DNA of 64,000 bases from Minisyncoccota bacterium (GTDB lineage Bacteria > Patescibacteriota > Minisyncoccia > Phycocordibacterales > Phycocordibacteraceae), in the NCBI GenBank assembly GCA_036405415.1, contig DASWXP010000002.1, positions 492,450 to 556,449 on the forward strand, in the 5' to 3' direction. Below are positions 7,294-62,305 of the stretch, piece by piece (the stretch's first letter is position 1; every line of letters starts with the position of its first letter). A program made the position numbers and the translations under genes. Under the pieces are notes generated by a model that worked only from the letters and a program-made list of their open reading frames with translations, was not told the origin of the DNA and did no database searches.

Positions 7294-7330
7294 AAAAGAG
7301 GCCCCGCGTTGTGCGGGGCCTCTTTCGTTT
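7294..7330 (+). terminator. intrinsic terminator
   Basis: Hairpin gaaaagaggccccgc-gttgt-gcggggcctctttc plus gttt. Confidence 0.55.
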
Positions 7331-7399
7331 GACACCCAAAAACCTAAGTAGTATCATGCTTTTATACAAGGCCCGCGGGGCTTTTTTATTTGGAAGACT

Positions 7400-10646: not shown

Positions 10647-11477
10647 TTATACCGCCATTGCGGCCTTTATGGTGTCGTGGGACTGATAGTTCTCAAGCTT
10701 GATGTCGTCCATGGTGAAGGAATCGATGTCCTTAACCTCAGGATTGAGCCAGAGGGAAGGGAACGGAAGCGGCTCGCGGGTGAGCTGCTCCTTCACGGCA
10801 TCGAAATGGTCGTGATAGATGTGCGCGTCGTTAAGCGTGAGCACGAGCTCGCCTGGTACCTTTCCGGTCACTTGCGCGACCATGGAAAGAAGAAGGCCGT
10901 AGGATGCGATATTGAACGGAACGCCGAGGAACATGTCGCAGGAGCGCTGCACCATGTGAAGCGAGAGCGTGTCTCCAGTCACGAAGAACTGGAACATCAT
11001 GTGGCACGGGGGGAGCGCCATCTGATCGAGCTCGCCCGGGTTCCAGGCTGAGACGACGAGACGGCGGTCCGTGGGATCGTTCTTGATCTTGTCGATCACA
11101 CGTGCGATCTGATCTACGACCGTTCCGTCCGGAGCCTGCCACTTTCGCCACTGCACGCCGTACACGCGACCGAGGTCTCCCGGGAATTTTGCTTTCGGCT
11201 TCCAATAGTCTGCCTCAGCGTTCGCGGTCCAGATGGTCTTCTCGGAACCGTTCAGTTCCTTTAAGCGGTTGTCGTCGCCGGAGCCTTCAAGAAACCATAG
11301 GAGCTCGCTCTTAACCGCCTTGAAGGCGAGCTTCTTCGTAGTGAGGGCAGGGAACCCGTCCTTCAGGTTGCAGCGGAGTTGGATAGCAAACAGAGCCCTT
11401 GTGTCGCCGTTCCGGCCTGTGCGGTCGACGCCTTCGTCCATGATCTTTCTAAGTGCGTCGAGGTAGGCCTGTTCCAT
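10647..11477 (-). CDS. thyA: thymidylate synthase (ThyA, folate-dependent)
   Basis: DRTGRNGDTRALF, active-site MALPPCHMMFQFFV, and RSCDMFLGVPFNIASY are canonical ThyA motifs. Confidence 0.9.
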   Translation of the reverse strand: MEQAYLDALRKIMDEGVDRTGRNGDTRALFAIQLRCNLKDGFPALTTKKLAFKAVKSELLWFLEGSGDDNRLKELNGSEKTIWTANAEADYWKPKAKFPGDLGRVYGVQWRKWQAPDGTVVDQIARVIDKIKNDPTDRRLVVSAWNPGELDQMALPPCHMMFQFFVTGDTLSLHMVQRSCDMFLGVPFNIASYGLLLSMVAQVTGKVPGELVLTLNDAHIYHDHFDAVKEQLTREPLPFPSLWLNPEVKDIDSFTMDDIKLENYQSHDTIKAAMAV

Positions 11478-11583
11478 AGAGAAAGTATACCGCCCGGGGA
11501 AATGGCCTCTCGGACCTGGGGAAAGCGGGGATAACCCAAATGCTAGGGTATGCTGAGACCTGATCTCAAGGGGGTATCAAAAC

Positions 11584-32081: not shown

Positions 32082-34241
32082 CTAGATATCCTCGTCCTCG
32101 TCGCTTCCGCTGCCTCCGCCCGAGCGGGAGAGGACTTCGCGCGGACGTGCACCATCTGCGGGGCCGATGACGCCCTTGTCCTCAAGAAGGTCCATGAGGC
32201 GCGCGGCGCGGGAGTAACCGATACGGAGCTTTCGCTGGAGGTATGACGTTGATGCGCGTCCTGCCTCCTCGACCGCTTCGCGGGCGGCTCCGAAGAGGTC
32301 GTCATCCACGTCATCGTCCTCGGCAGCCATCATGATGGCGTCGTTCGCCTCGTGGACGCCGGTGTTGTTTGTGTTTGCACCGAGATCGAGGGAGGACAAG
32401 GACCCTGCATTGTGCTGCTTGATGTGTGACACGACCTTCTTCACTTCCTGCTCGCTGATGTAGGCGGTCTGGAGGCGCACCGGCTTCTGCATGTCTGCAG
32501 ACTGGTACAGCATGTCTCCGGCGCCAAGGAGGAGCTCTGCGCCTGAGGCGTCGAGGATGGTGCGCGAGTCGATCTGGCTCGCTACCTGGAGCGCGAGGCG
32601 GGTAGGGACGTTCGCCTTGATGAGACCTGTGATGACATTCACGGAAGGGCGCTGGGTGGAAAGGATCAGGTGGATACCGACGGCGCGGGACATCTGCGCG
32701 AGGCGCACGATAGCGGCCTCGAGCTCTCTCGGGTAGGTCTGCATGATATCGGCGAGTTCGTCCACCACGATGGCGATGTACGGCATGGCTTCCGGAATCT
32801 CCGCGCTCTTGCGCTTCTTCGCAGGCTCGACCACGGTTGCGTGATAGGACTCGATGTCGCGTACCTGGCGCTCCTCGAGGATGCTGTAGCGGCGATCCAT
32901 CTCCTTAGCAGCCCACTTGAGGGCGAATATCGCCTTCTTCGGGTCCGTGATAACCGGGGTAAGCAGGTGGGGGATGCCGTTATAGAGGGTGAGCTCCACG
33001 CGCTTCGGGTCGATCATGATGAAGCGGAGCTGGTTCGGACCGTTCCTGTAGAGGAGGGAGGTGATGACCGCATGGATGGCTACGGACTTTCCGGAACCGG
33101 TAGCACCGGCAATGAGGCCGTGCGGCATCTTCGCTACATTCACGTAGTGGGGAACGCCGGCGATATCGCGACCGACCGCTGCTAGGAGCGGCTTCTTCGA
33201 TGCGCTCCATTCAGGAGCGCCGATGACGCCGCCGAGACCCACCATGGCTTTCGCGGCGTTCGGCACCTCGATGCCTACGAGCGACTTGCCCGGGATAGGA
33301 GCCTCGATACGGACCGGGTGCGCCGCGAGCGCGAGCTCGAGGTTGGTCTGGAGGCCTACGATCTTCTGGAGACGGACGCCCTCAGCAGGCTTGATGGCAT
33401 AGCGGGTGACGGTTGGGCCGACAGATACCTCGTCCATCTCGACCGAGATGCCGAAGTTCTGGAAGGTGCGCTTGATGATGTTCGCGTTGGCCTTGATGTC
33501 GCCTACGCCTGGCTTGCCCTTATCCTCGCCAAGGAGCGAGAGGGGAGGAGCCTCGTACTCTGCATCGAAATTCGGGATCGAGACTTCAGCGGCGCGGTCA
33601 TCGTTCCGATTGAACATCGTAACCACCGGCTCGCGCTCAGGAGCAGCTTCTTCGACTTCTTCCTCTGCCTCCTCTTCAGCTTCCGGCTCGTCTTCCTCCT
33701 CTTCGTCGCGCTTGGACTTCTTTTCAGGAAGCGAGACCTTCACCTGGCTGATTCGTCCGCTCATATCGTCTGCCGCGCTCTTAAGCAGCTTCAGGATGGC
33801 GACTATGTCGGTCGCGATGATGAGGCCGATAGCGACGACCGCAAGCAGAAGGATGATCGCGCCTGCGATGCCGAAGAGCTCGGCAGCGGCTCCGCCGAGC
33901 GCAGCTCCTGCCGCGCCTCCTCCGGCGTCGGTCACGATGCCGAGGAAGGTGAGGGTGGCGATGATGATGAGGACGACTCCAGTCGCGGTAAGCGGCGCGA
34001 TGAAGGTGCGCTCCATCATTATGGAGACACCGGTACCTATAAGAAGGACCGGGAGGAGGAAGGCGGCGATGCCAATGACGCTGAACCCGAACCCGAAGAT
34101 GGCCGAGCCTGCGAGGCCTGCGAGGCCTACTGCAGCGAGCGCGAAGATAAGACCGAAGGCGATAAGCACGATGCCCGTCGTCCACTTCGCAAGCGCACGA
34201 TAACTCTCCGCCTCGCGACTCTTCTTACGCCTCTTTGCCAT
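32082..34241 (-). CDS. ftsK: DNA translocase FtsK/SpoIIIE
   Basis: About 4 N-terminal TM helices, acidic linker, motor domain with Walker A GATGSGKSVAIHAVITSLL, and a C-terminal gamma winged helix. Confidence 0.85.
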   Translation of the reverse strand: MAKRRKKSREAESYRALAKWTTGIVLIAFGLIFALAAVGLAGLAGSAIFGFGFSVIGIAAFLLPVLLIGTGVSIMMERTFIAPLTATGVVLIIIATLTFLGIVTDAGGGAAGAALGGAAAELFGIAGAIILLLAVVAIGLIIATDIVAILKLLKSAADDMSGRISQVKVSLPEKKSKRDEEEEDEPEAEEEAEEEVEEAAPEREPVVTMFNRNDDRAAEVSIPNFDAEYEAPPLSLLGEDKGKPGVGDIKANANIIKRTFQNFGISVEMDEVSVGPTVTRYAIKPAEGVRLQKIVGLQTNLELALAAHPVRIEAPIPGKSLVGIEVPNAAKAMVGLGGVIGAPEWSASKKPLLAAVGRDIAGVPHYVNVAKMPHGLIAGATGSGKSVAIHAVITSLLYRNGPNQLRFIMIDPKRVELTLYNGIPHLLTPVITDPKKAIFALKWAAKEMDRRYSILEERQVRDIESYHATVVEPAKKRKSAEIPEAMPYIAIVVDELADIMQTYPRELEAAIVRLAQMSRAVGIHLILSTQRPSVNVITGLIKANVPTRLALQVASQIDSRTILDASGAELLLGAGDMLYQSADMQKPVRLQTAYISEQEVKKVVSHIKQHNAGSLSSLDLGANTNNTGVHEANDAIMMAAEDDDVDDDLFGAAREAVEEAGRASTSYLQRKLRIGYSRAARLMDLLEDKGVIGPADGARPREVLSRSGGGSGSDEDEDI

Positions 34242-34360
34242 ATATAGAGCATTCTAGCACCGAGCATTCATGCGGCGCACACACATCTTTGCCCGGCATT
34301 GCGAAGGTTGCGGACACCATCCCAGAGTCCTATACTGTCCTTGACGACCTATAGGACTAC

Positions 34361-35173
34361 ATGAGTGATAAAGGACAGAACAAGGACCAGAACTCGCTCC
34401 GAGCATCCCGCAATGATGCTGATAATTCTGATTTTGTCCTAGAAAAAGTAATATTCTCAAACGTATTCGAAAAGGACATACGACGCGTATACCTATATAA
34501 GAAGGCAGAGCGGCTCGCCAAGGCGATCCATCTCATCGTCCCTGCATTCACCGACGCTCCATCATTCAAGGACCGTCTCGACCGGATCGCGGTGGGTCTC
34601 GTAGACGCTGCGGTGCTCCCTCCGGCCGCATCCCGCGAGGCGCTCTCGCGAGAGTTGCTCGCGCTCTCAAGCATGCTCGGTATCGCGCGCACTGGAGGAA
34701 AGCTCACCCCGATGAATGCAGACCTCATAGCTCGTGAAGCGCACCTTCTCCTTGCAGAAGTAGCAGGGTATGAGGAGCCGCGGCTCACCCTTGAAGAGGT
34801 CCCAACCCTCGCGTCTCTCGCCAAGGCGGCTGCAGCAAACGGAGAGTCTGCACGCCTGCGTTCCCTGGCTCGAGTCTCATACGATGCGGCCCTCGATACT
34901 CCCGAAGAGAGCGTGTCCGATAAAGGACAATCTAAAGGACACATAAAGGACACCACCATACCTAAGCCTAAGGCCGCTACCGCCGGTAGTCAGAGGAGGG
35001 AAGGGATCCTCTCTGTGCTTCGCACCAAGGGTCCTTCATATATAAAGGATATATCGCTCGTAGTGCGAGACGTTTCAGAGAAAACTATCCAGAGAGAGCT
35101 CTCTGTTCTCGTGTCTGAAGGGGTGGTGAAGCGCAAGGGCGATCGCCGGTGGACCACCTACGAGCTGGCCTAA
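34361..35173 (+). CDS. hypothetical protein with C-terminal winged-helix DNA-binding domain
   Basis: 270 aa. The C-terminal ~55 aa (GILSVLRTKGPSYIKDISLVVRDVSEKTIQRELSVLVSEGVVKRKG) looks like a DeoR/ArsR-type wHTH. N-terminal domain unknown. Confidence 0.45.
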   Translation: MSDKGQNKDQNSLRASRNDADNSDFVLEKVIFSNVFEKDIRRVYLYKKAERLAKAIHLIVPAFTDAPSFKDRLDRIAVGLVDAAVLPPAASREALSRELLALSSMLGIARTGGKLTPMNADLIAREAHLLLAEVAGYEEPRLTLEEVPTLASLAKAAAANGESARLRSLARVSYDAALDTPEESVSDKGQSKGHIKDTTIPKPKAATAGSQRREGILSVLRTKGPSYIKDISLVVRDVSEKTIQRELSVLVSEGVVKRKGDRRWTTYELA

Positions 35174-35174
35174 C

Positions 35175-35728
35175 GGACAGTTGACTGAGGCCGTAATCCG
35201 GCCTACTATTCGCCTCGTGGTAACCGCAAGGAACCAGGGGTAATACATGGCCGGAGACGGCCTGTTTTGCGTTTGTATCTCAAGCGGTTATCCACACAGG
35301 TTTTAAGCGATTCCTCAGGATCGGCTCTGTATACTCTTAGTACCAGCTCTGGATGATTCCAGGGCCGGATGCCGAAACGATTCTGGTGCGAATCCGAAAC
35401 GACTGAATCCTTGAAAAAGGAATAGGGAATGAAAGCCCTGCGACGTAAGAAGTCGCAGGCCTGAACGTCTTCATGAAAAGACGGTCAGTCTGGACGGATG
35501 ATTTTGATAGACACGGATGGACGAACGATACGAAACGAACTATGCCAACTAGCCGATGGGACGCACGTCGATAGTACGTCCTGTCGGGTAGTGTGAATCG
35601 TGCGTAATACTCCCTCCCTCCTCTCGGGGAAGGGAGGGAATTACCAAGAGAGAAAAAGCATGTGTGCGAGACGATCTTTATTAACCGGACCGCATGCATG
35701 TCTCACAACTTAGAAAACGCAATCAATC
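35175..35728. other. structured non-coding region, roughly 550 nt, lower GC (candidate ncRNA or long 5' leader)
   Basis: No credible ORF and GC about 50% versus over 60% in flanking genes. Multiple perfect hairpins (ggccggagacggcc, cctgcgac-gtaagaa-gtcgcagg, cgtcttcatgaaaagacg, tccctccc...gggaggga) and a repeated CGAAACGA motif. Confidence 0.3.
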
Positions 35729-37591
35729 ATGACTGCAAACAACACTATGGTTGCAAAGCTTGCAGCTGCTCTCGCAGTTGTAGGCCTCGTGGCATCTTCT
35801 GTTGTTGCCTTCGCTCCGGCGGCTGGCGCACAGACCACGACGACCTCCGCAAGCGTCACGTTCACTCGTGACCTTACGATCGGTTCTACGGGCGCGGATG
35901 TTACCGCACTCCAGAACTGGCTTATTATGAAGGGCTACGCTATTGCAGCTGGCGCAACCGGTTACTTCGGTGCACAGACGCAGGCAGCTCTCGCAAAGTA
36001 CCAGGCAGCTAAGAGCATCGCTCCGGCAGCAGGTTACTTTGGTCCGATCACTCGTGCAGCTGTAGCAGCTGATGGTGGTTCTACCGGTGGCAACAACGGT
36101 GGTTCTACCGGCGGCAACAACGGCGGCAGCGATCTCTCCGGTGGTGAGGCAGATCTTTCTGACTACAACCTCCGCCGCGAGGAGTCGACTGGCGACGAGG
36201 GTGAGGAGGAGGTAGAGGTCGCAACGGCAGAGTTCGACGTTGAGGACGGCGACGTCCGCGTTGAGCGCCTTGAGATCCTCGCATCTTCTACCAACAACCT
36301 TCTCGAGCAGAATCCGTGGAACTACTTCGATCGCGTTATCGTCTGGGCTGACGGTGAGGAGATCGCAGACATGGAGGTTGATGACCGTGACGCATGGGAC
36401 GAGGAGTCCGATGACGTTTACCGTCTCGCTCTTACCGGCCTCGACTACGTAGTTGAGGAGGGTAACCAGGCGGAGATCACCTTCGGCTTCGACATTGCAG
36501 GTTCTATCGACTCTGACGACCAGGCACAGACCTTCGTCTTCCAGATCCCAGAGGACGGTATCCGCGCAGTTGATGCTGAGGGCATCCAGCAGTACATCGG
36601 TGCTACTGGCGAGCTCCCAACCAACACCAACGAGTCCGTATCCTTCACCTTCGGTGCTGAGGACAACGGCGAGCTTTCGATCTCGTCGAACAGCGACGAT
36701 CCTGATGCTTCCATTCTCATCGTCGATGACGAGGATGAGTCTGATGAGTACTCGGTATTCGTATTCGACATCGAGAACGACTCTGACGTTGATTCCCTCG
36801 TTACTGAGGTTCAGATCGACGTTACTGACGGCAACAGCGCAGTAGCAACTGGCGACATCATCCGCCGCGCAACCCTCGTGGTTGATGGCGATGAGTACGA
36901 CGCTGAGATCGCTGGCGCAGTAAGCGCAGTTGGTACCCTTACCTTCGAGGACATGGATCTCGAGGTATCAGGTGACGACGAGGTTACTGCAGAGCTCATG
37001 ATCACCCTTGCTCGCAACGCAACCAGCACCACCCTCTCCTTCGAGACGGACGGCGCAACGGACGTTGAGGCTGAGGGCGTTGACTCTGGCGATGAGACGA
37101 CCGTAGACGGTTCCGCAACGTCGGCAACCCACACGACCGCGCTCACTGGTATCGCAGTTGAGGCAGTTTCCACCTCCCAGTCGGTAACGACCCCGGGTGA
37201 CACTGCATCTTCGACCTACGCTACCTACACCATCAAGTTCGATGTTACCGCCCTCGATGAGGACGCATACATCACTGAGGCTGTTGGTACGATCGGCACC
37301 TCAACCACCAACGGTGTTGAGTACGACATCTTCGGCGGTTCGTACACCGGTACGGCATCTGCAGTCCTCACTTCGACCGCAGTTGACACCGGTTCCTACT
37401 TCCGTGTTGATGAGGGCGAGACCGAGACGTTCACCCTTACGGTGACCCTCGATCCGGCAGCGGCAGGCACCTTCGGTGTCAAGCTCGATGAGGTTAACTT
37501 CAACGACACTCAGGCTGCAGGTGATACCACCTTCAACGTTGACGCGTCTAACGAGGACTTCCGCACCGACGCTGTCTACATCGCAAACTAA
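35729..37591 (+). CDS. secreted peptidoglycan-binding acidic surface protein (S-layer-like candidate)
   Basis: Signal peptide and a PG-binding domain (TFTRDLTIGSTGADVTALQNWLIMKGYAIAAGATGYFGAQTQAALAKYQ). Then a (GGSTGGNNGG)x2 linker and a ~480-aa extremely acidic, Thr/Asp/Glu/Val-rich beta-rich region. Confidence 0.55.
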   Translation: MTANNTMVAKLAAALAVVGLVASSVVAFAPAAGAQTTTTSASVTFTRDLTIGSTGADVTALQNWLIMKGYAIAAGATGYFGAQTQAALAKYQAAKSIAPAAGYFGPITRAAVAADGGSTGGNNGGSTGGNNGGSDLSGGEADLSDYNLRREESTGDEGEEEVEVATAEFDVEDGDVRVERLEILASSTNNLLEQNPWNYFDRVIVWADGEEIADMEVDDRDAWDEESDDVYRLALTGLDYVVEEGNQAEITFGFDIAGSIDSDDQAQTFVFQIPEDGIRAVDAEGIQQYIGATGELPTNTNESVSFTFGAEDNGELSISSNSDDPDASILIVDDEDESDEYSVFVFDIENDSDVDSLVTEVQIDVTDGNSAVATGDIIRRATLVVDGDEYDAEIAGAVSAVGTLTFEDMDLEVSGDDEVTAELMITLARNATSTTLSFETDGATDVEAEGVDSGDETTVDGSATSATHTTALTGIAVEAVSTSQSVTTPGDTASSTYATYTIKFDVTALDEDAYITEAVGTIGTSTTNGVEYDIFGGSYTGTASAVLTSTAVDTGSYFRVDEGETETFTLTVTLDPAAAGTFGVKLDEVNFNDTQAAGDTTFNVDASNEDFRTDAVYIAN

Positions 37592-37631
37592 TAGCCTCGA
37601 GGTACGCCTCGTAGCTACTAACTAGCGATTC

Positions 37632-37665
37632 GCAAAAGCCCCAGGGTACGCCCTGGGGCTTTTGC
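37632..37665 (+). terminator. strong intrinsic terminator
   Basis: gcaaaagccccaggg-tacg-ccctggggcttttgc. Confidence 0.7.
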
Positions 37666-37669
37666 TATA

Positions 37670-37944
37670 CTCTCCGCATGCAGTACTTCCTTCATTTCCT
37701 CAAAGTACTTCTCGCGTTCATTGCCATAATTGGCCTCGCGCTCTTTGGCATGCAGTTTGCGGGCATGGGGGTAATAGGGTAGAGTGCCCCTGTACGGACC
37801 GAAGACAGCCAGCAGCCCTTAGGGGCAGAAGCCTGGCCGAGGGACGATCGGGGTAGGGCACTAAGCACTATTTCCGGGTCGACTGTCTCCTCACAAAGGT
37901 CCCGCAAGGGACCTTTGTCCGTTTCGTACGAACAACACACAAGC
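37670..37944 (+). promoter_or_regulatory. putative L10 (rplJ) ribosomal-protein leader
   Basis: About 270-nt structured untranslated region directly upstream of rplJ, with a hairpin caaaggtccc-gcaa-gggacctttg ending 25 nt before the start codon. L10 leaders are a known autoregulatory class. The ORF-track call 37662-37856 looks non-coding. Confidence 0.3.
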
Positions 37945-40474: not shown

Positions 40475-40502
40475 TTGACAGGGATTTTGACTCGCGTATA
40501 CT
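40475..40502 (+). promoter_or_regulatory. sigma70-type promoter P1 upstream of the 23S-5S unit
   Basis: TTGACA - 16 nt - TATACT, consensus -35 and near-consensus -10. A second TTGACA at 40624 may be P2, with a weak -10. Confidence 0.5.
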
Positions 40503-40603: not shown

Positions 40604-41024
40604 TTGGAAGGGACACGGGCTCGTTGACAGACGAATATGCAAAATAGGTAATCAACACCGCAAGGTGTGTAGTTTTCTACATGCCCTGCGGATTGAATAT
40701 TGCAGAATCACAAACAAAAGAAATCGTTAGAAAGTGGTATTCAGGTTTCCGCACAGGAGACATGAAGGGTGCACGGTGGATGCCTAGGCTTGCGACAGCG
40801 ATGAAGGACGCGACTAATCAGCGAAATGCTTCGGGGAGACGATTTGTAGTCTTTGATCCGGAGGTGTCCGAATGGGGAAACCCGGCCAGCAATGGTCACC
40901 CTCCTTTTAAGGAGTGGAGCTCACCCAGGGAAGTGAAACATCTCAGTACCTGGAGGAATAGAAAACAACAACGAGTTGTGTTCCGTCTGCTTGATGCTTC
41001 GAGTAGATGGAACGCGACTCTCGT

Positions 41025-41056
<32 letters not shown>

Positions 41057-41292
41057 GAGCCCAAACCCAATACTTCGGTGTTGGGGGTTGTAGGGTGAGA
41101 GCGCCGTATTTATACGGCACAAGTTACAAAGGTCTTATATAGCAGAAGAAGCTGGAAAGCTTCGCCCCAGAGGGTAATGGCCCCGTATGCGAAATATAAA
41201 ACTCTTGTGTGCTCTCATTCCTGAGTAGGTCGAGACACGAATAGCTCGGCTGAATCTGCCAGAACTAACTGGTAAGGCTAAATATGTCGCAG

Positions 41293-41338
<46 letters not shown>

Positions 41339-42777
41339 GAGAGGGGAGTGAAATAGAACTGAAACCGTGTACTTACAAAGGGTTAGGGTGGGCTCCGGTC
41401 CATCCTAGCGTGCCTATTGAAGAATGAGCCTGCGAGTGTATGTATGTTGCTTCGGCTAAATCCGTAACGGGATGGAGCCACAGGGAAACCGAGTGTTAAT
41501 AGCGCGCCCGTATCATACATACGACCCGAAGCCAGGTGAGCTTGCCATGAGCAGGATGAAGTTTGGAGAAATCCAAATGGAGGTCCGAACCCGTAGATCG
41601 TACAACGTCTTGGGATGACTTGTGGTAAGGAGTGAAAAGCTAATCGAACCTGGTAATAGCTGGTTCTCTCCGAAATAGCTTTTGGGCTAGCGTCGCGTGC
41701 TCCCTCCGGGGGTAGAGCACTGGAAGGGACAAATAGGGGGAAACCTCGTTGTTCCTATCAAACTCCGAATACCGGACGGCATGAGCGCGGCAGTTAGACG
41801 GTGGGGGCGAAGCTCCACACGTCGAAGGGGGAAGAGCCCTTGATCGCCAGTTAAGGTCCCAAAATTTACGCTAAGTACAACTTAAGGAAGTGAGGATTCT
41901 TCGACAATGAGGATGTTGGCTTAGAAGCAGCCACCATTTAAAGAAAGCGTAACAGCTCACTCATCGAGAGTCCTTGCGCCGAAGATGATCGGGGTTAAGC
42001 GTAATACCGAAACTGCGGGTGTGCATCGTATTCGTACGGTGCACGCGGTAGGAGAGCGTTCCGTTCTGCTGTGAAGCTAAAGGGGTGACCCATAGTGGAG
42101 CGTACGGAAGTGAGAATGCAGGCACAAGTAACCACAATGCGGGTGAGAACCCCGCACGTCGAAAGAACAAGGTTTCCTCAGCTATGGTGATCAACTGAGG
42201 GTTAGTCGGGCCTTAGGGGATGGCGAAAGCCGCACCTGATGGACACAGGGTTAATATTCCCTGACCGATCATATGTGCGATGGAGTGACGGATTGCTGTA
42301 TCTATGGCCCATTATTGGATTTGGGTTGGTGCCGTGAGGGTGTGTGGTAGGAAAATCCGCCACGCGTTATCCCGAGCGGAAAAACAATGTCCTTCTTCGG
42401 AGGGGCAGAGCATAGAGAGCGCGGTTCCAAGAAAAACTTCTAAGCTTCAGCATATGACGACCGTACCGCAAACCGACACAGGTGTTCAGGTCGAGTAGAC
42501 TAAGACGAACGAGTGAGAGGTCCTCAAGGAACTCGGCAAAAAAGCGGCCGTAAGTTAGCGATAAGGCCTGCCTCCCGCAAGGGAGGCCGCAGCGAAAGAT
42601 TTTCTGCCAACTGTTTACCAAAAACACAGCTCCCTGCGAACTCGTAAGAGGATGTATAGGGGGTGACGCCTGACCAATGCCGGAAGGTCAAGCAGGGGAG
42701 GTACATTGTCCTCGGATGATGTGCTGGACCCTATAAGCCCCGGTGAATGTCGGCGATAACTATAATCGTCCTAAGGT

Positions 42778-42973
42778 TCTGCATCTGAGCAATCGGATGC
42801 AGAACGGATTGGGGCGGTTATAGGAGACCGTAAACAGCCCGAGAGGGTAAACGTCAAAATAGCTACCTCTTCAGACCGAAAGGTCTGATGGATCCACGAC
42901 TCAAATGAGAGGCCATACGTCGTGCCCCTACTTCGGTAGGGTGAAGATATGGTCCTGCTGTAAGGAATAGTAG
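42778..42973 (+). mobile_element. group-I-like intron in 23S at the L1931 site (no ORF)
   Basis: 196-nt insertion between CCUAAGGU and AGCGUAAUUCCUUGUC, i.e. after U1931 by alignment to E. coli. 5' exon ends in U and the insert ends in G, as in group I introns. Confidence 0.5.
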
Positions 42974-43630
42974 AGCGTAATTCCTTGTCTGGTAAGTTCA
43001 GACGTGCACGAATGGCGTAATGAGTGGAAAACTGTCTCGAGGACTTGCTCGGTGAAAATGCAATACCGGTGAAGATGCCGGTTACCTGTAGTTAGACGAA
43101 AAGACCCCAGGAGCTTTACTACAGCTTGGTGTTGGGGTTGTGTGTCGTATGCGTAGCATAGGTGGGAGACTTTGAAGCGAGGGTTTTGGCTCTCGTGGAG
43201 TCGCCAGTGAAATACCACTCTTACGATGTGCAACTTCTAACCCGCATGAGAACCATGCGGGGACCGCGCCTGGCGGGTAGTTTTGGTGGGGCGCTATCCT
43301 CCTAAAAAGTAACGGAGGAGTCTATTAAGGTTGGCTAGGCGCGAATGGAAACCGTGCCGATAGTGTAATGGCACAAGCCAGCTTAACTGTAAGGGGTACA
43401 TCCCGCACAGATGCGAAAGCAGAGCATAGTGAACCGATGGTTCGCCTTAGATGCGGCCAGAGATTAACGGATAAAAGTTACCCTGGGGATAACAGGCTAG
43501 TTCCGCCCAAGCGTCCATAGCGACGGCGGAGTTCGGCACCTCGATGTCGGCTCACCTTAGCGCGGGGCTGGAGAAGGTCCCAAGCGTTTGGCTGTTCGCC
43601 AATTAAAAAGGTACGCGAGCTGGGTTCAAA

Positions 43631-43925
43631 CCGTGAGGGTTTATCGAGTCTTCGGATTCGATGCTCTCACTGTTTGAATCCCTTCGAGCGAGATTATCGC
43701 AAAACAACACATCAGAAAGTCTTTTCGTCTTGAAACAAGCATAGGAACAACCATGACACGGCGGTTCTGCATAGGGATATGCAGAAGCAAACTGACTAAT
43801 ATCGGAAGAACCCCACGTTGGGCGATTCCGAGGGAAGCGAAAGCGCCCGTAGAGACTGAACGTCAGTCACGAAGAACTCGTGAAGCTACAGTCCGATCCT
43901 TCCGGCAACGGAAGTCAACGAAATG
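43631..43925 (+). mobile_element. group-I-like intron in 23S near the L2593 site (no ORF)
   Basis: About 295-nt insertion interrupting GAGCUGGGUU(C/U)A(A/G)A...CGUGAGACAGGUUGGUC. Boundaries uncertain by a few nt. No LAGLIDADG ORF. Confidence 0.45.
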
Positions 43926-44299
43926 CGTGAGACAGGTTGGTCTCCTATCTACTACAGGCGTTGATTCTTGAGGAGACTTGCCCCTAGTACGAGAGGACCG
44001 GGGTGAACTGACCTCTGGTCTGCCTGCTGTCACGCCAGTGGCATCGCAGGGTAGCTATGTCGGGAATTGATAACTGCTGAAAGCATATAAGCGGGAAGCA
44101 AACTCCAAGATTAGGAATCGTTATGAGGCTCCTAGAAGATTACTAGGTTGATAGGCATTAGGTGGAAGCGCAGTAATGCGTTGAGCCGAGATGTACTAAT
44201 ATGCCCAGACTTCTGTGCGGAACTCTGTATGGCACTTCTAACGAAGTGATCTGCAATACCTTTTTGCATATTCGTCCGTCCGCGAGGACGGAACGCGCG

Positions 44300-44415
44300 C
44301 AGGATGCTGGTGATGTATCGGAAGGGCCACACCCGTTCTCATTCCGAACACGGCAGTTAAGCCTTCCAGAACCGATGGTACTCGAAAGGGGAGAGTAGGT
44401 GGTCGCCAGCATCGT
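44300..44415 (+). rRNA. rrf: 5S ribosomal RNA
   Basis: Helix I gaugcugg/ccagcauc, loop C CCGAAC, and conserved GUACUCGAAAGGGGAGAGUAGG segment. About 116 nt, 85 nt downstream of the 23S. Confidence 0.8.
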
Positions 44416-44477: not shown

Positions 44478-44513
44478 ATACGAACGCCGCTTTTCCTATA
44501 TACTGGTACTACT

Positions 44514-45269
44514 ATGGCGCTTGATTGGGCAGGGAAGCGAAGGTTCTACATCATCGGCGGCGCGTCGCTTATCGCGCTCATGCTACTCGCGGGGATCCTG
44601 ATAGCGGTTATGTACGATACCCCCTCGTGCATGGACGGAAAGCAGAATCAGGATGAGAACGGGATAGACTGCGGCGGTTCGTGCGCGTACCTCTGCAGCG
44701 CAGAGGTCGAGCCTGCGCGCGTGCCGTTTGCGCGCGCGCTCATGAATCTCTCTGGACGCACCGACCTCATAGCATATGTGGAGAACCGTAACGCGCTTGC
44801 GGAGGCGAAGAACGCTCCGTACGTGGCAGAGATATTCGATGCCGAGGGACGCCTGCTCGGAACGCGTGAAGGAATCGTAGACCTTCCGGCACGTGCGATC
44901 GTTCCGGTGTTCGTTCCGGGAATCGGCGCAAGGGGCGCAGCGCGCGCATTCCTTACGATCGCAGAGACTGCGAAGTGGCGGCTGCCTAGAGATACGAAAG
45001 AACCGCTTACGGTCGGTACCGTATCGATGGTCCAGGGAGAGAAGGCGCGCGTCACGGTGCCGATCGAGAACCTGAGTCCCCGGGACGAATTCGATAGGAC
45101 GGTTATTGCCGTCGTGTTCAACGCAGACGGAGAAGCGGTCGCGGCGACGCAGACCGTACTTCGCGTCGTGTCCGCGTTCGGAAAGACCGACGCGGTGTTC
45201 AGCTGGAACGAGCCGTTTCCCGAGGGTGCTGTGCGCGCCGAGGTGCGCGTAGTGCCGCGGCTGCCATGA
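44514..45269 (+). CDS. hypothetical membrane-anchored periplasmic protein
   Basis: 251 aa, N-terminal TM helix, then a Cys cluster (CMDGKQNQDENGIDCGGSCAYLC). Overlaps the ftsW/rodA start by 4 nt. Confidence 0.45.
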   Translation: MALDWAGKRRFYIIGGASLIALMLLAGILIAVMYDTPSCMDGKQNQDENGIDCGGSCAYLCSAEVEPARVPFARALMNLSGRTDLIAYVENRNALAEAKNAPYVAEIFDAEGRLLGTREGIVDLPARAIVPVFVPGIGARGAARAFLTIAETAKWRLPRDTKEPLTVGTVSMVQGEKARVTVPIENLSPRDEFDRTVIAVVFNADGEAVAATQTVLRVVSAFGKTDAVFSWNEPFPEGAVRAEVRVVPRLP

Positions 45270-46405: not shown

Positions 46406-47565
46406 TTCCGGTACAGGGAAAGGGTGCGGGCTATCATGCGTTCGATCGAGAACTTGTTGCGCACCTGCTCCTCAAGCGCCTGTCCAAGACGCTCTCGCAG
46501 TGCGCTGTCGTGTACGAGCGTGTGAAGCGCGCTAGCAAGCGCCTTCGAATTATTCGGGGGCACCAGGAGTCCGGTTACCTCGTGCTCGAGCACTTCAGGG
46601 ATGCCGCCTATCTCGCTTCCGACGCACGGGAGTTTGGCAAGCCCCGCTTCAAGGAACGCGTACCCGAGGGCTTCGGTGCGAGACGGGAGCGCAAAGATGT
46701 CGAGCGCAGGCAGGTAGCGCGCCGCGTCCGGGACGAAGCCTGCGAGGTAAATGCGGTCCGGGAGATCGAACACCTGGGCAAGCTTTGAGAGCCAGGCGTA
46801 CGACTGGCCTTCGCCCATGATGACGAGCACCACCGGTACGTCCTCGCGCGCTACCTTCGCGAACGCTTCGATAAGCGTATCGAGTCCCTTCGTGGGATGG
46901 AGCTCTGCGATGACGCCGACCCAGAGCGCGTCCGGGTGGCTACGCACGAATTCAGGAGCAAGTGCCTGGCGCGCTTCATTGCGAGACAGGAACGGGATAG
47001 GGGAGACGCCGTTATGGATGACGCGCATTCGCTTCCCAACGAGCGGCATGAACCGCGCATCGTGCTGAATAGCTTTCGAGACGGCGATCGTATTGTGCGA
47101 GAGGAGAACAGTCAGGTAGTGGAAGGCAGCGATGAGCGCTTTCTGCCACTTCGGCCGAGACTCATTGAATGCCCACCCGTGTGCCGTGAATACGATATGC
47201 GGCACGCGCTCGATGCGTCCGATGATTGCGGCGAGCGCCCCGGCCTTCGAGCTGTTTCCATGGATCACGTCCGGGCCGAAATCGCGCACGATGGTGCGGA
47301 GTGCGAGGAACGAGTCGATCTCGGCACGGATCTTAATATCGCGCTGCATGCTGCCGATCGACTCGGAGGCAACGCCTGCAGCCTCGAGGCGCTCGGTTAG
47401 GGGACCAGCATTCCCGCTCACCACGAGCACATCGTGTCCGGCCTGCTTCGCCGCGGTCGCAAGATCGAATACGTAGCGCTGGGCACCACCCCAGTTAGCC
47501 TTGGTAATAACGTAGAGGATACGGAGCGGCCGGGCGGGGCCTGCTACTTCCGGGCGGTCATGCAT
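46402..47565 (-). CDS. GT4-family (group 1) glycosyltransferase
   Basis: GT-B fold with N-terminal (ILYVITKANWGGAQRYV) and C-terminal EX7E-type regions (LPSRTEALGYAFLEAGLAKLPCVGSEIGGIPEVL). Confidence 0.8.
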   Translation of the reverse strand: MHDRPEVAGPARPLRILYVITKANWGGAQRYVFDLATAAKQAGHDVLVVSGNAGPLTERLEAAGVASESIGSMQRDIKIRAEIDSFLALRTIVRDFGPDVIHGNSSKAGALAAIIGRIERVPHIVFTAHGWAFNESRPKWQKALIAAFHYLTVLLSHNTIAVSKAIQHDARFMPLVGKRMRVIHNGVSPIPFLSRNEARQALAPEFVRSHPDALWVGVIAELHPTKGLDTLIEAFAKVAREDVPVVLVIMGEGQSYAWLSKLAQVFDLPDRIYLAGFVPDAARYLPALDIFALPSRTEALGYAFLEAGLAKLPCVGSEIGGIPEVLEHEVTGLLVPPNNSKALASALHTLVHDSALRERLGQALEEQVRNKFSIERMIARTLSLYRN

Positions 47566-47588
47566 GTTCTATAGTATAAAGGAAGCTC

Positions 47589-55237: not shown

Positions 55238-55266
55238 TTGACGCTATTTGGAGGGTCCTGTACTAT
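55238..55266 (+). promoter_or_regulatory. sigma70-type promoter for the 16S rRNA
   Basis: TTGACG - 17 nt - TACTAT, about 115 nt upstream of the 16S 5' end. Confidence 0.5.
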
Positions 55267-55379
55267 AGCCCTACTGCCTCCTTGTGGAGGCGGGGTTTGT
55301 TTTCGCTCTTCGAAAACTGAATAGTGAACATGCAAAAAATTGGTAAGAACATGAGTTTTCTTGTGTTCCGCCTATTCTT

Positions 55380-56835
55380 AATGAGAGTTTGATCCTAGCT
55401 CAGGATGAATGCTGGCTGTATGGATAAGGCATGCAAGTCGAACGGACCGCAAGGTCAGTGGCAGACGAGGTAGTAACACGTAGGTACGTACTCCCAAGTC
55501 CGGCATAGCTCGTCGAAAGACGGGGTAATTCCGGATGGTCCCGCAAGGGTAAAGATTTATCGCTTGGGAAGCGGCCTGCGTAGTATCAGCTAGTTGGTAG
55601 GGTAACGGCCTACCAAGGCTACGACGCTTAGGGGAGCTGAGAGGCTGACCCCCACCGATGGGACTGAGACACGGCCCATACTCCTACGGGAGGCCGCAGT
55701 CGAGAATCTTCCGCAATGGACGAAAGTCTGACGGAGCGATACAGCGTGATGGACGAAGTGCTTCGGTACGTAAACATCTTTTATGTGGGACGAAATTATT
55801 GACGGTACCACATGAATAAGGGGCTCCTAACTCTGTGCCAGCAGGAGCGGTAATACAGAGGCCCCGAGCATTATCCGGAATCATTGGGCGTAAAGGGTGT
55901 CAAGGCGGTCATGTTAGTCGTTCGTTAAATCCGGGAGCTCAACTTCCGGCCTGCGAGCGAAACGGCATGACTTGAGGGTGGGAGAGGTGCGTGGAACTCA
56001 CGGTGTAGGGGTGAAATCCGTTGATATCGTGGGGAACACCAAAGGCGAAGGCAGCGCACTGGCCCATTCCTGACGCTCACACACGAAAGCCAGGGTAGCG
56101 AATGGGATTAGATACCCCAGTAGTCCTGGCCCTAAACGTTGCTCGCTCGCTCTACGGAGTATCGACCCTCTGTGGGGCTAAGCTAACGCGGTAAGCGAGC
56201 CGCCTGGGTAGTACGAGCGCAAGCTTAAAACTCAAAGGAATAGACGGGGACTCGCACAAGTGGTGGATCATGTGGCTTAATTCGTAGCTAAGCGAAGAAC
56301 CTTACCAGGGCTAGAAACCAAGCTGCATCCGACCCGAAAGGGACGGAGCCTTCGAGGGTGCTTGGCAGGTGATGCATGGTCGTCGTCAGTTCGTGGCTTG
56401 AGCTGTTCCCTTCAGTGGGGTAACGAACGCAACCCTCGTTGTCTGTTATATATGTCAGGCGAGACTGCCCCCTCACGGGGGAGGAAGGTGAGGATGACGC
56501 CAGATCAGCATGTCCCTTGATGCCCTGGGCTGCACACGTGATACAATGGTTGGTACAGAAGGACGCAATACCGCAAGGTGGAGCAAATCCCCAAAACCAG
56601 CCCCAGTACGGATTGAGGTCTGCAACCGACCTCATGAAGCCGGAATCACTAGTAATCCTGGGTCAGCAATACCAGGGTGAATACGTTCTCGAGTCTTGTA
56701 CTCACCGCCCGTCAACTCAAGGAAGCTGGGGGTACCCGAAATCTTGGTTTATCCAGGACTACGGTAAATTCAGTGACAGGGAGTAAGTCGTAACAAGGCA
56801 CGGCTAGCGGAAGCTGGTCGTGGAACACATCCAAT
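55380..56835 (+). rRNA. rrs: 16S ribosomal RNA (divergent, about 1.45 kb)
   Basis: AGAGUUUGAUCCUAGCUCAG 5' end, recognisable 515, 785, 1100 and 1390 regions, and 3' GUCGUAACAAGGCACGGCUAGCGGAAGCUGGUCGUGGAACACAUCC. Confidence 0.85.
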
Positions 56836-57035
56836 CGGAACGAGAAATCAGAAATGATTCTCTCCGGTCGATCGCTTCTTCGGAAGTGAGGAGATGGTGC
56901 TGCGTCCTTAAACGCGCACTCGGACGCCGGAACAACGCACCGGTGAATGTTTGGAAGTCTCAATTGAACTTCCAAGCGTTCGAATAGGCGGAACACAAGA
57001 GTGCTTCATGTGCTTACCAACTGCATGCAAGAACG

Positions 57036-57087
57036 CTGTGTGGATCGATGCTCTTCGGAGGATCGATCCACACAGCGTTTTTTGCGT
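57036..57087 (+). terminator. strong intrinsic terminator about 200 nt after the 16S 3' end
   Basis: About 18-bp stem ctgtgtggatcgatgctc-ttcg-gaggatcgatccacacag (one mismatch) followed by cgttttttg. Confidence 0.7.
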
Positions 57088-57304
57088 TATGCGGGCTGGA
57101 GCGACAAGCGCTTCACGGCCCTGCGCCAGATGCGCATCTTATTCCGGTGCCGGCGGAGCTTCAGGGAAGGAGTCGAGCTCCGGAGGGCTCGGAGGCCTTT
57201 GGTCTCACGGGTAGTTCCGCGATGTACCATCGTTACTGGCACTATACCGTGGAGGATCCCTGCCACTGGAACGATATGGGGATTTCTGCTACTATCCGCA
57301 GGTC

Positions 57305-57380
57305 GCAAGTGTAGCTCAGTTGGTAGAGCACTCGACTGATACTCGAGCGGTCGTAGGTTCGAATCCTACCACTTGCACCA
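57305..57380 (+). tRNA. tRNA-Ile (anticodon GAT), CCA encoded
   Basis: Acceptor gcaagtg/cacttgc, anticodon loop cTGATac, T-loop ttcgaat, 3' acca. Followed by the terminator at 57383-57412. Confidence 0.85.
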
Positions 57381-57412: not shown

Positions 57413-57464
57413 TATACCCACCCGGAACTAGGGAGGCGCCCGCCTCCCGGTATACTTTCCTCAT

Positions 57465-57992
57465 ATGCGTTATTCCCTCATCGTGCTCGGTATCTGTCTT
57501 GCGGCCATCGTGGTCGGCGGGGCGCTCTATATGTACGGACCGGACGTGCTTCGCGAGAATCCGCTCAAGGAGAACGGCGCGAGTGCGCTTGGCGCGGACC
57601 TCGCCGAAGAGGTCTCGTTCTCGGTGCTTGCCGAAGGGCAGGATTCGCAGATCATGGAGCGCAAGAACTTCGCGGCGTACTCGCGCGAGGATTTCCAGGA
57701 TCTCTGGACGCGCGCATTCGGCGAGAACGCGCCAGCGCTCCCATCCGTTAACTTCGACGAGTCATACGTGATCGGCGTCTTCGCCGGGCAGAAGCCGTCG
57801 GGCGGGCACTCGATCGCAGTGTCGCGGGTCGTGGACGAGAACAGCGTGCGCAGCGTCGCTATCACGATTACGCGCCCCGGTGCCGGATGCGTCACCTCGC
57901 AGGCGCTCACGAGCCCGTACCAGTTCGTCGTGGTGCCGTTCTCGGACCGTCCGCTCGCTAAGACCGATCAGGAAGTCGAGGATTGCCTGTAG
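57465..57992 (+). CDS. hypothetical membrane-anchored protein
   Basis: 175 aa, N-terminal TM (LIVLGICLAAIVVGGALYMY), a periplasmic domain, no clear motif. Confidence 0.4.
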   Translation: MRYSLIVLGICLAAIVVGGALYMYGPDVLRENPLKENGASALGADLAEEVSFSVLAEGQDSQIMERKNFAAYSREDFQDLWTRAFGENAPALPSVNFDESYVIGVFAGQKPSGGHSIAVSRVVDENSVRSVAITITRPGAGCVTSQALTSPYQFVVVPFSDRPLAKTDQEVEDCL

Positions 57993-62092: not shown

Positions 62093-62113
62093 ACGGTAGG
62101 GTATACTGGACCC

Positions 62114-62305
62114 ATGTCCAGAAGCCTGATGCTCATTATCCTCGGCGCGCTCGTGTTCGTGGCGCCGTTTTCAGGCCTTCCAATGAGCATCCTCGCATGG
62201 ATCCTCCCGGTATCCGGTCTCGCATTGGTTGCGATCGGCATCTCGTACCGAAGGAATCCGCCGGTGCGCCCGACTTATGAAGCAGATACGCACGCATCTC
62301 TCTAA
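62114..62305 (+). CDS. 63-aa small membrane protein (hypothetical, possibly leaderless)
   Basis: Two TM helices. TATACT at 62102-62107 ends 6 nt before the ATG, suggesting a leaderless transcript. Overlaps the next gene's start by 29 nt. Confidence 0.25.
   Translation: MSRSLMLIILGALVFVAPFSGLPMSILAWILPVSGLALVAIGISYRRNPPVRPTYEADTHASL

Follow-up and report, generated by a model that had tools for sequence, protein, structure and literature searches.

In the trp and pyrBI attenuators a short open reading frame (ORF) lies upstream of a hairpin and U tract, between the promoter and the structural gene, and in pyrBI a ribosome close behind the polymerase blocks the terminator hairpin. The Escherichia coli ompA and Bacillus subtilis aprE leaders carry 5′-terminal stem-loops that protect the mRNA from 5′-end-dependent decay, and the S-layer leaders of lactobacilli are roughly 100-200 nt in length. 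S-layer genes combine two promoters with a stabilising structured 5′ untranslated region (UTR), and this arrangement, in which the 5′ end of the transcript is paired, has been credited with the long half-life of the mRNA (PMC3666127). Leaderless translation in mycobacteria requires only that the transcript begin with ATG or GTG, a condition both necessary and sufficient; small 5′ ORFs of this type are numerous ahead of annotated genes, and it is the linkage that is conserved, not the peptide (PMC4633059). Here we analysed a 555-nt non-coding gap (35174-35728) in a 64,000-nt stretch of a Minisyncoccota genome (contig DASWXP010000002.1; the whole stretch is referred to as the window), which lies between the stop codon of a 270-aa ORF (35173) and the ATG of a 620-aa ORF (35729), as originally predicted. 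On balance, we favour the reading that this gap is a Candidatus Paceibacterota-specific, cis-acting 5′ leader of approximately 390-510 nt with tandem promoters, in which a mini-ORF and a rod-like hairpin at the 5′ end would couple the synthesis and stability of a surface-protein mRNA to translation.

Conservation and folding of the leader

The GC content of the gap is 0.505 compared to 0.586 for the window, a drop that is real and moderate rather than marked as had been claimed. Its description as the largest non-coding stretch is roughly true (other gaps of 270-760 nt appear by crude ORF cover), and the numerous perfect or near-perfect hairpins reported in it are present. The RNA fold of 35175-35740 reached -215 kcal/mol compared to -169 ± 7 kcal/mol for 100 dinucleotide shuffles, none of which folded as well (z = -6.4), indicating that folding of the gap exceeds chance. 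The motif CGAAACGA, noted earlier as a repeat, occurs three times (35373, 35395, 35531) with no further copies in the window; the first copy alone is kept in relatives, as YYGAAACGR.

Twelve loci were gathered by the surface protein alone (L001 from a genome collection; L002-L008, L010, L011 and L052 by contig look-ups), and a metagenome scan with a pattern built from two invariant blocks added approximately 35 further true members. Pattern matches L015, L037 and L041 were a chance match inside a coding region of an unrelated organism and were discarded; L019/L036, L045 and L050 also look unrelated. The leader is conserved in approximately 45 Paceibacteria loci in the order FtsK gene (- strand), winged-helix gene, leader, surface-protein gene. 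All 12 protein-homology loci have the same gene order and a 500-600-nt gap, and these gaps can be aligned although surface-protein identity among the loci is as low as 42-77%. Wherever the flanking sequence is long enough, the winged-helix gene is directly upstream, and the gene directly downstream encodes a secreted surface protein with the same signal peptide and a peptidoglycan-binding domain. The region is thus non-coding, structured and conserved, and the comparative alignment of related loci that had been proposed as a check yielded covariation.

Two forms of the leader were observed. The long form (approximately 550-585 nt) precedes a protein of approximately 600 aa, and the short form (approximately 376-470 nt; L012, L016, L018, L020, L027, L035, L042, L049) lacks the hairpins H4, H5 and H7 described below and precedes proteins of at least approximately 1060 aa where the ORF is complete. 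The short-form proteins have the signal peptide and the peptidoglycan-binding domain in common with the 620-aa protein, and nothing else. The leader is conserved more deeply than its protein and common to two different downstream proteins with the same signal peptide; together with the signal peptide it resembles a conserved expression cassette whose cargo can be exchanged. Surface-protein paralogues occur in tandem in L001 (3738-7869), L006, L007, L010, L011 and L052, with the leader at the first copy only; the second copy follows a gap of approximately 90-330 nt without the rod, and a paralogue in another context (L009) has no rod element.

No Rfam 15 family was found in 35174-35728 at the gathering threshold; at E values up to 10 the gap gave trivial hairpin matches only (13-19 bits), and the leaders of six homologous loci gave no match at E values up to 1. 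A literature search found no description of the element. RNase P RNA was considered because GCCGAUGG-hairpin-GGUAGUGUGAA resembles its P11/P12 region, and was rejected, with no Rfam match at E = 10 and the segment forming a single long hairpin. Signal recognition particle RNA, 6S RNA and T-box identities for the rod or for hairpin H6 were likewise rejected, with no Rfam match and the defining motifs absent by inspection. The small ORF at 35473-35574 is not supported as a gene: its ATG lies in the loop of H5 and is not conserved (AUU in L008, AUA in L023), and indels break the frame. A 120-aa minus-strand ORF (35337-35699) has no Pfam match and overlaps 1-2-nt indels between close relatives that break its frame, so it is not a gene either. 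Overall, the gap is very likely a cis-acting leader RNA made from the + strand; it is conserved and folded, and is probably a new gene-control element rather than ordinary spacer DNA.

The 5′ rod, its mini-ORF and two predicted promoters

The 5′ rod is an 80-nt hairpin (35217-35296, + strand) with the base GUGG-UAAC../..GUUA-U-CCAC and a covarying middle rich in G.U pairs. In the window it has a minimum free energy of -39.9 kcal/mol (z = -5.7), and the first approximately 80 nt fold as one rod in 36 of 36 distinct homologues and in L052 (-28 to -47 kcal/mol). In a 39-sequence alignment 74.5-76.8% of the cells pair compared to 36-46% with the partners slid, and 71-87 cells carry double changes compared to 22-57 in the slid controls; no shuffle reached the observed scores. 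RNAalifold on plain MAFFT alignments missed the rod through register shifts, and the rod was resolved instead with a structure drawn by hand, a covariance model and folds of the individual sequences. Covariance-model scores were 35-83 bits for the + strand and did not exceed 34 for the - strand, and the window contains one copy of the rod. This strand bias, together with the G.U-rich helices, indicates an RNA read from the + strand.

The apex of the rod (35249-35275, + strand) consists of the stem-loop GGCCG-GAGA-CGGCC (35249-35262) followed by the U-rich UGUUUUGCGUUU, and was matched by a terminator scan. Apex and U tract have the shape of the intrinsic terminators of this genome, for example the one after the surface-protein gene. 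Among the 12 protein-homology loci, 11 have this stem unchanged, as do all pattern-derived members; the loop is GNRA or GNNA, and at least four U are found in the 9 nt after the stem in 37 of 39 rods. The U-rich strand after the apex pairs back with the purine-rich 5′ strand of the rod.

At the base of the rod, the 3′ strand contains TTATCCACA (35288-35296, + strand), a perfect DnaA box and the only one in the window; matches with up to one mismatch number 9 in 64 kb compared to 5.2 expected, and are scattered. The slightly longer GUUAUCCACA (35287-35296), which contains the box, is invariant in all members including the 12 protein-homology loci, whereas its pairing partner GUGGUAAC varies, mostly from A to G, keeping G.U pairs. 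The bulged U and the unpaired 3′ A of GUUAUCCACA are also invariant. Invariance of these positions while the partner varies suggests a sequence-specific binder: either a protein bound to the DNA, with DnaA and the neighbouring regulator as candidates, or one that recognises the RNA. An origin of replication, suggested by the perfect box and the divergent FtsK and regulator genes, is excluded: GC skew stays positive across the window with no switch, the box is single rather than part of a cluster, and most of the upstream genes are + strand genes. Long-range pairing, whether between GUUAUCCACA and UGUGAA or between the GAUAA loop and UUAUC, was rejected, with one side varying and the other invariant.

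A consensus scan placed a promoter, P1, immediately upstream of the rod (35181-35209, + strand), with the -35 element TTGACT at 35181-35186, a 17-nt spacer and the -10 element TACTAT at 35204-35209. TTGAC and TAnnnT are invariant in homologues, while the spacer varies in sequence (17 nt; 16 nt in two members). P1 is predicted to be a strong promoter of the ribosomal RNA (rRNA) type, the kind that drives stable RNAs here. Five full TTGAC-N17-TAnnnT promoters occur in the window, of which three precede tRNA-Arg, 23S rRNA (40475-40502) and 16S rRNA (55238-55266) and one lies in the gap. The first base of the rod is 6-7 nt after the P1 -10 element, which puts the predicted P1 start (G35217) flush with the rod.

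The rod opens with an invariant GUG, and its distance from the -10 element is the spacing of the leaderless genes of this genome. From the predicted P1 start, 35217-35243 (+ strand) reads as a mini-ORF, GTG GTA ACC GCA AGG AAC CAG GGG TAA (MVTARNQG*), which was overlooked in the claim that the gap encodes only tiny basic peptides. An in-frame stop follows 4-10 codons after the GUG in 38 of 39 rods and also in L052 (39 of 40), which was found without the RNA pattern and reads MVTA*; the sole exception is L029 with 19 codons. Stops in either of the other two frames of the same approximately 25-nt segment were found in 6 of 39 rods each, and the value for shuffled segments was 0.34. After clustering of the 39 rods at 75% identity, all 24 clusters have the frame-0 stop, with differing peptides and stop positions (MVTARNQG, MVTAGSQTF, MVAVY, MVTTYR, MVATGA, MGTKGTGL, MVTRP and others). 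The mini-ORF ends from -1 to 18 nt before the apex hairpin, and 5 nt before it in the window (hairpin at 35249). A constraint that respects the frame cannot stem from RNA pairing, and implies that ribosomes read from the 5′-terminal GUG. Selection on the frame of the mini-ORF is thus likely, and the mini-ORF appears to be read by ribosomes. No repeated regulatory codon was found in the peptides, and neither inspection nor folding revealed a competing helix that could act as an antiterminator for the apex stem.

Translation of this kind is consistent with the rest of the window. At many genes a -10 hexamer stands 6-9 nt upstream of the ATG (TAnnnT-N6-9-ATG); it is most commonly TATACT, in many cases with GG before it and no -35 element. 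Examples are found at 44499-44516, 57451-57467 and 62102-62116, and on the - strand at 11477-11494, 47565-47583 and 34241-34260. This spacing indicates that most mRNAs of the genome look leaderless. No Shine-Dalgarno motif was found at any gene in the window, and the CCUCC anti-Shine-Dalgarno core is missing from the 3′ tail of the 16S rRNA (ACAUCCAAU). The tail (56800-56835) has GGAACACAUCCAAU instead of GGAUCACCUCCUUA, the core being changed from CCUCC to CAUCC.

A second promoter, P2, is predicted from the -10 element TATACT (35330-35335, + strand), without a -35 element, which is the usual -10 of the genome. It is invariant in 33 of 33 leaders, and the predicted start A35342, 7 nt downstream, is kept in at least 90%. 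One subgroup has 43-45 nt between GUUAUCCACA and the P2 -10 element, compared to 31-33 nt in the others. Both predicted starts, 35217 and 35342, lie 0-1 nt before stable hairpins. Of the two upstream promoter candidates named in the original prediction (TTGATA...GATACG), GATACG is a poor -10 element that lacks conservation, and the pair is not kept as a promoter in relatives. TTGATAGA has the character of a conserved RNA motif, in long-form members only, and the conserved promoter-like elements are those of P1 and P2. No third promoter was found near the ATG of the surface-protein gene (no TAnnnT at leaderless spacing in long or short forms). Between the regulator stop codon (35173) and P1 no terminator was found; the stop lies only 7 nt before the P1 -35 element, which leaves the regulator gene with no terminator other than the apex.

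Downstream hairpins, flanking genes and rRNA loci

Downstream of the rod the leader is a chain of local hairpins and conserved linkers with no compact multi-helix junction, mapped on the + strand from pair probabilities averaged over 21 long forms. H2 (35343-35368; -16.4 kcal/mol, z = -3.5) starts 1 nt after the predicted P2 start, and its sequence is wholly different between subgroups (CCCGCGC.../...GCGCGGG and other stems) with the hairpin always kept. The motif UCCUUGAAAAAGGAAUAG (35408-35424; family consensus YUUGAUAAnnGAAUAG) forms the small hairpin H3 in long forms only; its C, UU and A positions are invariant across 33 leaders, and its mean pair probability is 0.42-0.59. H4 (35437-35459) has 8 bp, a conserved GUAAGAA loop, pair probabilities of up to 0.93 and compensatory changes at six of six predicted pairs. 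H5 (35462-35487) pairs CGUCUU with AAGACG around the loop UCAUGAAn, and its stem changes in sequence between subgroups while the hairpin is kept.

H6 (35541-35597) has 21 bp, UUGCCAACUAGCC...GGGUAGUGUGAA, with tandem U.G/G.U pairs and an invariant GUCGAUA loop (35567-35573), and is found in all members. Pairing was observed in 92.7% of the cells compared to 31-51% with slid partners, with 58 double-change cells compared to 3-11 and a covariation score of 0.348 compared to at most 0.131. H7 (35609-35639) is a pyrimidine/purine hairpin, UCCCUCCCU / AGGGAGGGA, conserved in position and subgroup-specific in sequence; it exists as predicted, with arms (35611-35619/35631-35639) that are 100% complementary, and ends 89 nt rather than approximately 60 nt before the ATG. 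H8 (35656-35703), of 18 bp with a UUAUUA-type loop, is the last structure before the start codon, with pair probabilities of 0.6-0.9 and compensatory changes at 13 of 14 predicted pairs. The conserved loops and linkers GUCGAUA, GUAAGA, YUUGAUAA..GAAUAG and GAUUAC are probably contacts for a protein, or tertiary contacts.

The start region (35704-35731, + strand, AUG at 35729) is G-poor, A-rich and weakly structured, with no Shine-Dalgarno sequence. In 33 leaders the 20 nt before the AUG have a mean pair probability of 0.37-0.45 compared to 0.65-0.75 in most of the upstream leader. The long forms carry two copies of ACGGAUG whose starts are separated by 17 nt (35496-35520; consensus GAAACGGAUGCUUUUGAUAGAnACGGAUGAACGA), with only partial conservation. 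GGAUG is complementary to the altered 16S tail and also resembles a CsrA site. GGAUG repeats (35352, 35367, 35497, 35515) were rejected as CsrA-like or anti-Shine-Dalgarno-matching elements: four are present compared to approximately 0.7 estimated, with one or two conserved and in long forms only.

The upstream gene (34361-35173, + strand) encodes a 270-aa protein with a C-terminal winged-helix domain (DeoR/ArsR-like, with weak helix-turn-helix matches) that is 47-97% identical among loci with upstream DNA. Its own promoter (34306-34360) reads TTGCGG-N17-TATACT flanked by conserved GGACA boxes, and GGACA-TATACT...AAGGACAC-ATG is kept before the regulator gene in nearly all relatives. Three AAAGGACA repeats lie inside the coding sequence near its 3′ end (34914-34950). 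The GGACA boxes and the AAAGGACA repeats may be operators for autoregulation. The FtsK gene lies further upstream on the - strand.

The downstream gene (35729-37591, + strand) encodes the secreted protein of 620 aa, which comprises a signal peptide, a PG_binding_1 domain (Pfam), a Gly/Ser/Asn linker and approximately four immunoglobulin (Ig)-like beta-sandwich domains, in agreement with the original placement of the gap upstream of a surface-protein gene. It has more than 1000 relatives, named as Paceibacterota or Patescibacteria proteins. An AlphaFold2 model (predicted local distance difference test score 85.5) shows the peptidoglycan-binding domain followed by approximately four Ig-like beta-sandwiches, and the nearest folds by Foldseek are integrin legs and the Gram-positive adhesins PrgB and AgI/II. 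Model and fold matches indicate that it is a wall-anchored surface protein; we make no claim of a crystalline S-layer lattice. The region after the gene (37626-37914) has a clear terminator, AAAAGCCCCAGGG-UACG-CCCUGGGGCUUUUGC, and directly behind it a TATACT promoter and a leader of approximately 240 nt before rplJ, the rplJ/rplL genes lying downstream of the surface-protein gene. Equivalents of the rplJ leader in L004 and L011 matched the Rfam L10_leader at 28-30 bits, below the gathering score of 44.

The rRNA genes of the window are unlinked and in unusual order (23S-5S at 40751-44411; 16S, then tRNA-Ile, at 55377-57380), with the 23S (3470 nt compared to a 2925-nt model, approximately 545 nt of insertions) and 5S genes 11 kb upstream of the 16S gene. 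A full-consensus promoter (TTGACA-N17-TATCAT) at 7329-7395 is followed by a GC hairpin and T run within approximately 12 nt.

Candidate mechanism and alternative explanations

We infer transcription, translation and termination of the leader from its sequence, and the mechanism that we propose is accordingly conditional in each step. P1 would start strongly at G35217, and a 70S ribosome would load on the 5′-terminal GUG during RNA synthesis, as on the leaderless mRNAs of the genome. The GUG would be free only until the 3′ strand of the rod is transcribed, admitting one pioneer 70S, which would translate the mini-ORF and halt next to the apex hairpin. This closely trailing ribosome would hinder the apex terminator and P1 transcripts would read through, while in transcripts coming from the regulator gene the GUG would be internal and termination would occur at the apex. 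After read-through the 3′ strand of the rod would pair back, leaving the 5′ end fully paired; this closure would bury the GUG, so that no further ribosomes load. P2 transcripts would start 1 nt before H2. The paired 5′ ends and later hairpins would protect an abundant mRNA from 5′-end-dependent decay, and the last approximately 25 nt would stay open for Shine-Dalgarno-independent initiation.

Several observations weigh against this account. P1, P2 and both starts are predictions, and ATG, not GTG, is the start codon of every leaderless gene observed in the window. The apex stem has only 5-6 bp, and the U tract is weak in a few members (three U in L020 and L046). In L052 the apex is a different hairpin without a U tract, so termination cannot be a universal function. 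In approximately half of the members more than 9 nt separate the mini-ORF stop from the hairpin, and direct occlusion by the ribosome is therefore not assured. Nor does the model account for the invariance of GUUAUCCACA and the apex stem. In addition, 28 of the 40 rods came from the pattern that required the apex and the GUUAUCCACA box, which biases statements on these two elements but not those on stop codons. The short stem, the L052 apex, the distant stops and the ATG-only leaderless genes together make the attenuation step the weakest link, and we regard it as doubtful, though well within reason. A fuller version, in which the leader is a hitherto undescribed promoter-specific, translation-coupled attenuator of these ultra-small bacteria of the candidate phyla radiation (CPR), with a leaderless mini-ORF in the rod, a 5′-terminal GUG in P1 RNA only and a cell-cycle input that the DnaA box may add, is a tentative possibility. 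An attenuator was among the candidates first put forward, and gained unexpected support from the leaderless mini-ORF ending just before a terminator-like hairpin.

A passive stabilising 5′ UTR would explain many of the same features. In that case the hairpins would lengthen the life of the mRNA, the GUG would merely pair with CAC, the stop would free ribosomes that load by accident, and there would be no regulation. The string-of-hairpins architecture and the pairing of both predicted 5′ ends suit it, S-layer genes provide a precedent (PMC3666127), and L052 keeps stop and rod without a terminator-like apex. Stability, however, needs neither invariant loops and linkers, an apex stem or GUUAUCCACA over such divergence, nor a terminator-like U tract kept in 37 of 39 rods, and a purely passive role seems to us possible rather than probable. 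As a description of the element, a stabilising 5′ UTR of the S-layer kind is nevertheless the best fit among the candidates originally listed, given the tandem promoters and paired predicted 5′ ends.

The independent small RNA, another of those candidates, could apply to the 80-nt rod, made from P1 and ended by the apex terminator or by processing, with the surface-protein mRNA coming from P2 alone. P1 is strong and of the stable-RNA kind, the ends of the rod are paired as in many stable small RNAs, and P2 lies just downstream. Against this, the rod is not followed by a terminator (in short forms a U run after CCACA is missing), and a stop at the apex would leave the 3′ strand of the rod unmade, yet the rod pairs covary; covarying pairs beyond the terminator-like site favour read-through. 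The rod is also never found away from the leader and occurs in one copy per locus, and we consider a separate small RNA improbable.

Control at the level of DNA was also considered, with the DnaA box tying expression to the initiation of replication and winged-helix operators (GTATAC repeats at P2) acting in place of an RNA function. The box is perfect and invariant, including positions unpaired in the RNA, while the partner strand varies; it lies 31-33 or 43-45 nt from the P2 -10 element, spacings approximately one helical turn apart, and the regulator gene is always adjacent. As the sole explanation, DNA-level control is quite unlikely: the compensatory changes and G.U pairs require pairing of + strand RNA, and there is a single box with no cluster. 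It may well, however, be an added layer beside the RNA function. Finally, conserved unpaired linkers and loops and an early terminator-like element recall a metabolite or second-messenger riboswitch controlling the surface-protein gene, but the absence of any Rfam family in the gap (E up to 10) or in six homologous loci (E up to 1), an architecture of separate local hairpins in series with no supported multi-helix junction, and a stretch of only approximately 30 nt before the terminator-like hairpin, itself read as the mini-ORF, make this highly improbable.

Comparison with known leaders

Patescibacteria are largely uncultivated bacteria with minimal genomes and a cell surface needed for host attachment, and to our knowledge almost nothing has been described of their gene regulation. 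The leader probably serves as the cassette that expresses their most abundant envelope protein. If the favoured reading is true, the leader provides a new RNA family for annotation and a marker of the major surface-protein locus in metagenome-assembled Paceibacteria genomes, as well as a strong promoter and leader module for the genetic tools under construction for Patescibacteria. It would also provide sequence-level evidence that leaderless translation operates in the Paceibacteria lineage, and a case of its recruitment for cis-regulation, previously described mainly in mycobacteria. If the attenuator is true, synthesis of the main envelope protein would track the translation capacity of the cell. 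The invariant DnaA box in a transcribed RNA helix is a concrete, testable oddity whose function the favoured model leaves unexplained.

Compared to the 5′-terminal stem-loops of ompA and aprE, the leader likewise has a hairpin within a few nt of both predicted 5′ ends; those leaders, however, are short single hairpins without invariant sequence, whereas the Paceibacteria leader has an 80-nt rod with an invariant base and apex. As in the trp and pyrBI attenuators, a mini-ORF lies directly before a hairpin and U tract, between P1 and the structural gene. In contrast to them, this mini-ORF is leaderless, without a ribosome-binding site, only 5-11 codons long and free of runs of regulatory codons; the search for an alternative antiterminator helix gave none, the U-rich strand later joins a long rod, and L052 lacks the apex. 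With the leaderless small ORFs of mycobacteria it has in common a start codon at the predicted first base, a position upstream of a gene and a variable peptide, but it differs in belonging to Patescibacteria, in lying in a covarying rod able to bury its own start, and in being followed by approximately 480 nt of structured leader.

The closest likeness is to the S-layer leaders of Lactobacillus acidophilus and L. brevis slpA, which likewise lie upstream of the main, very abundant surface-protein gene with tandem promoters and a paired 5′ end, the last two being predicted in the Paceibacteria leader. Unlike these, the Paceibacteria leader is several times longer (approximately 390-510 nt), is conserved over deep divergence with invariant loops, combines a terminator-like apex with a leaderless mini-ORF, and belongs to a genome that lacks Shine-Dalgarno pairing. 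By analogy, the element would work like the tandem-promoter S-layer leaders, and in part it may resemble both the leader-peptide attenuators and the leaderless upstream ORFs of mycobacteria.

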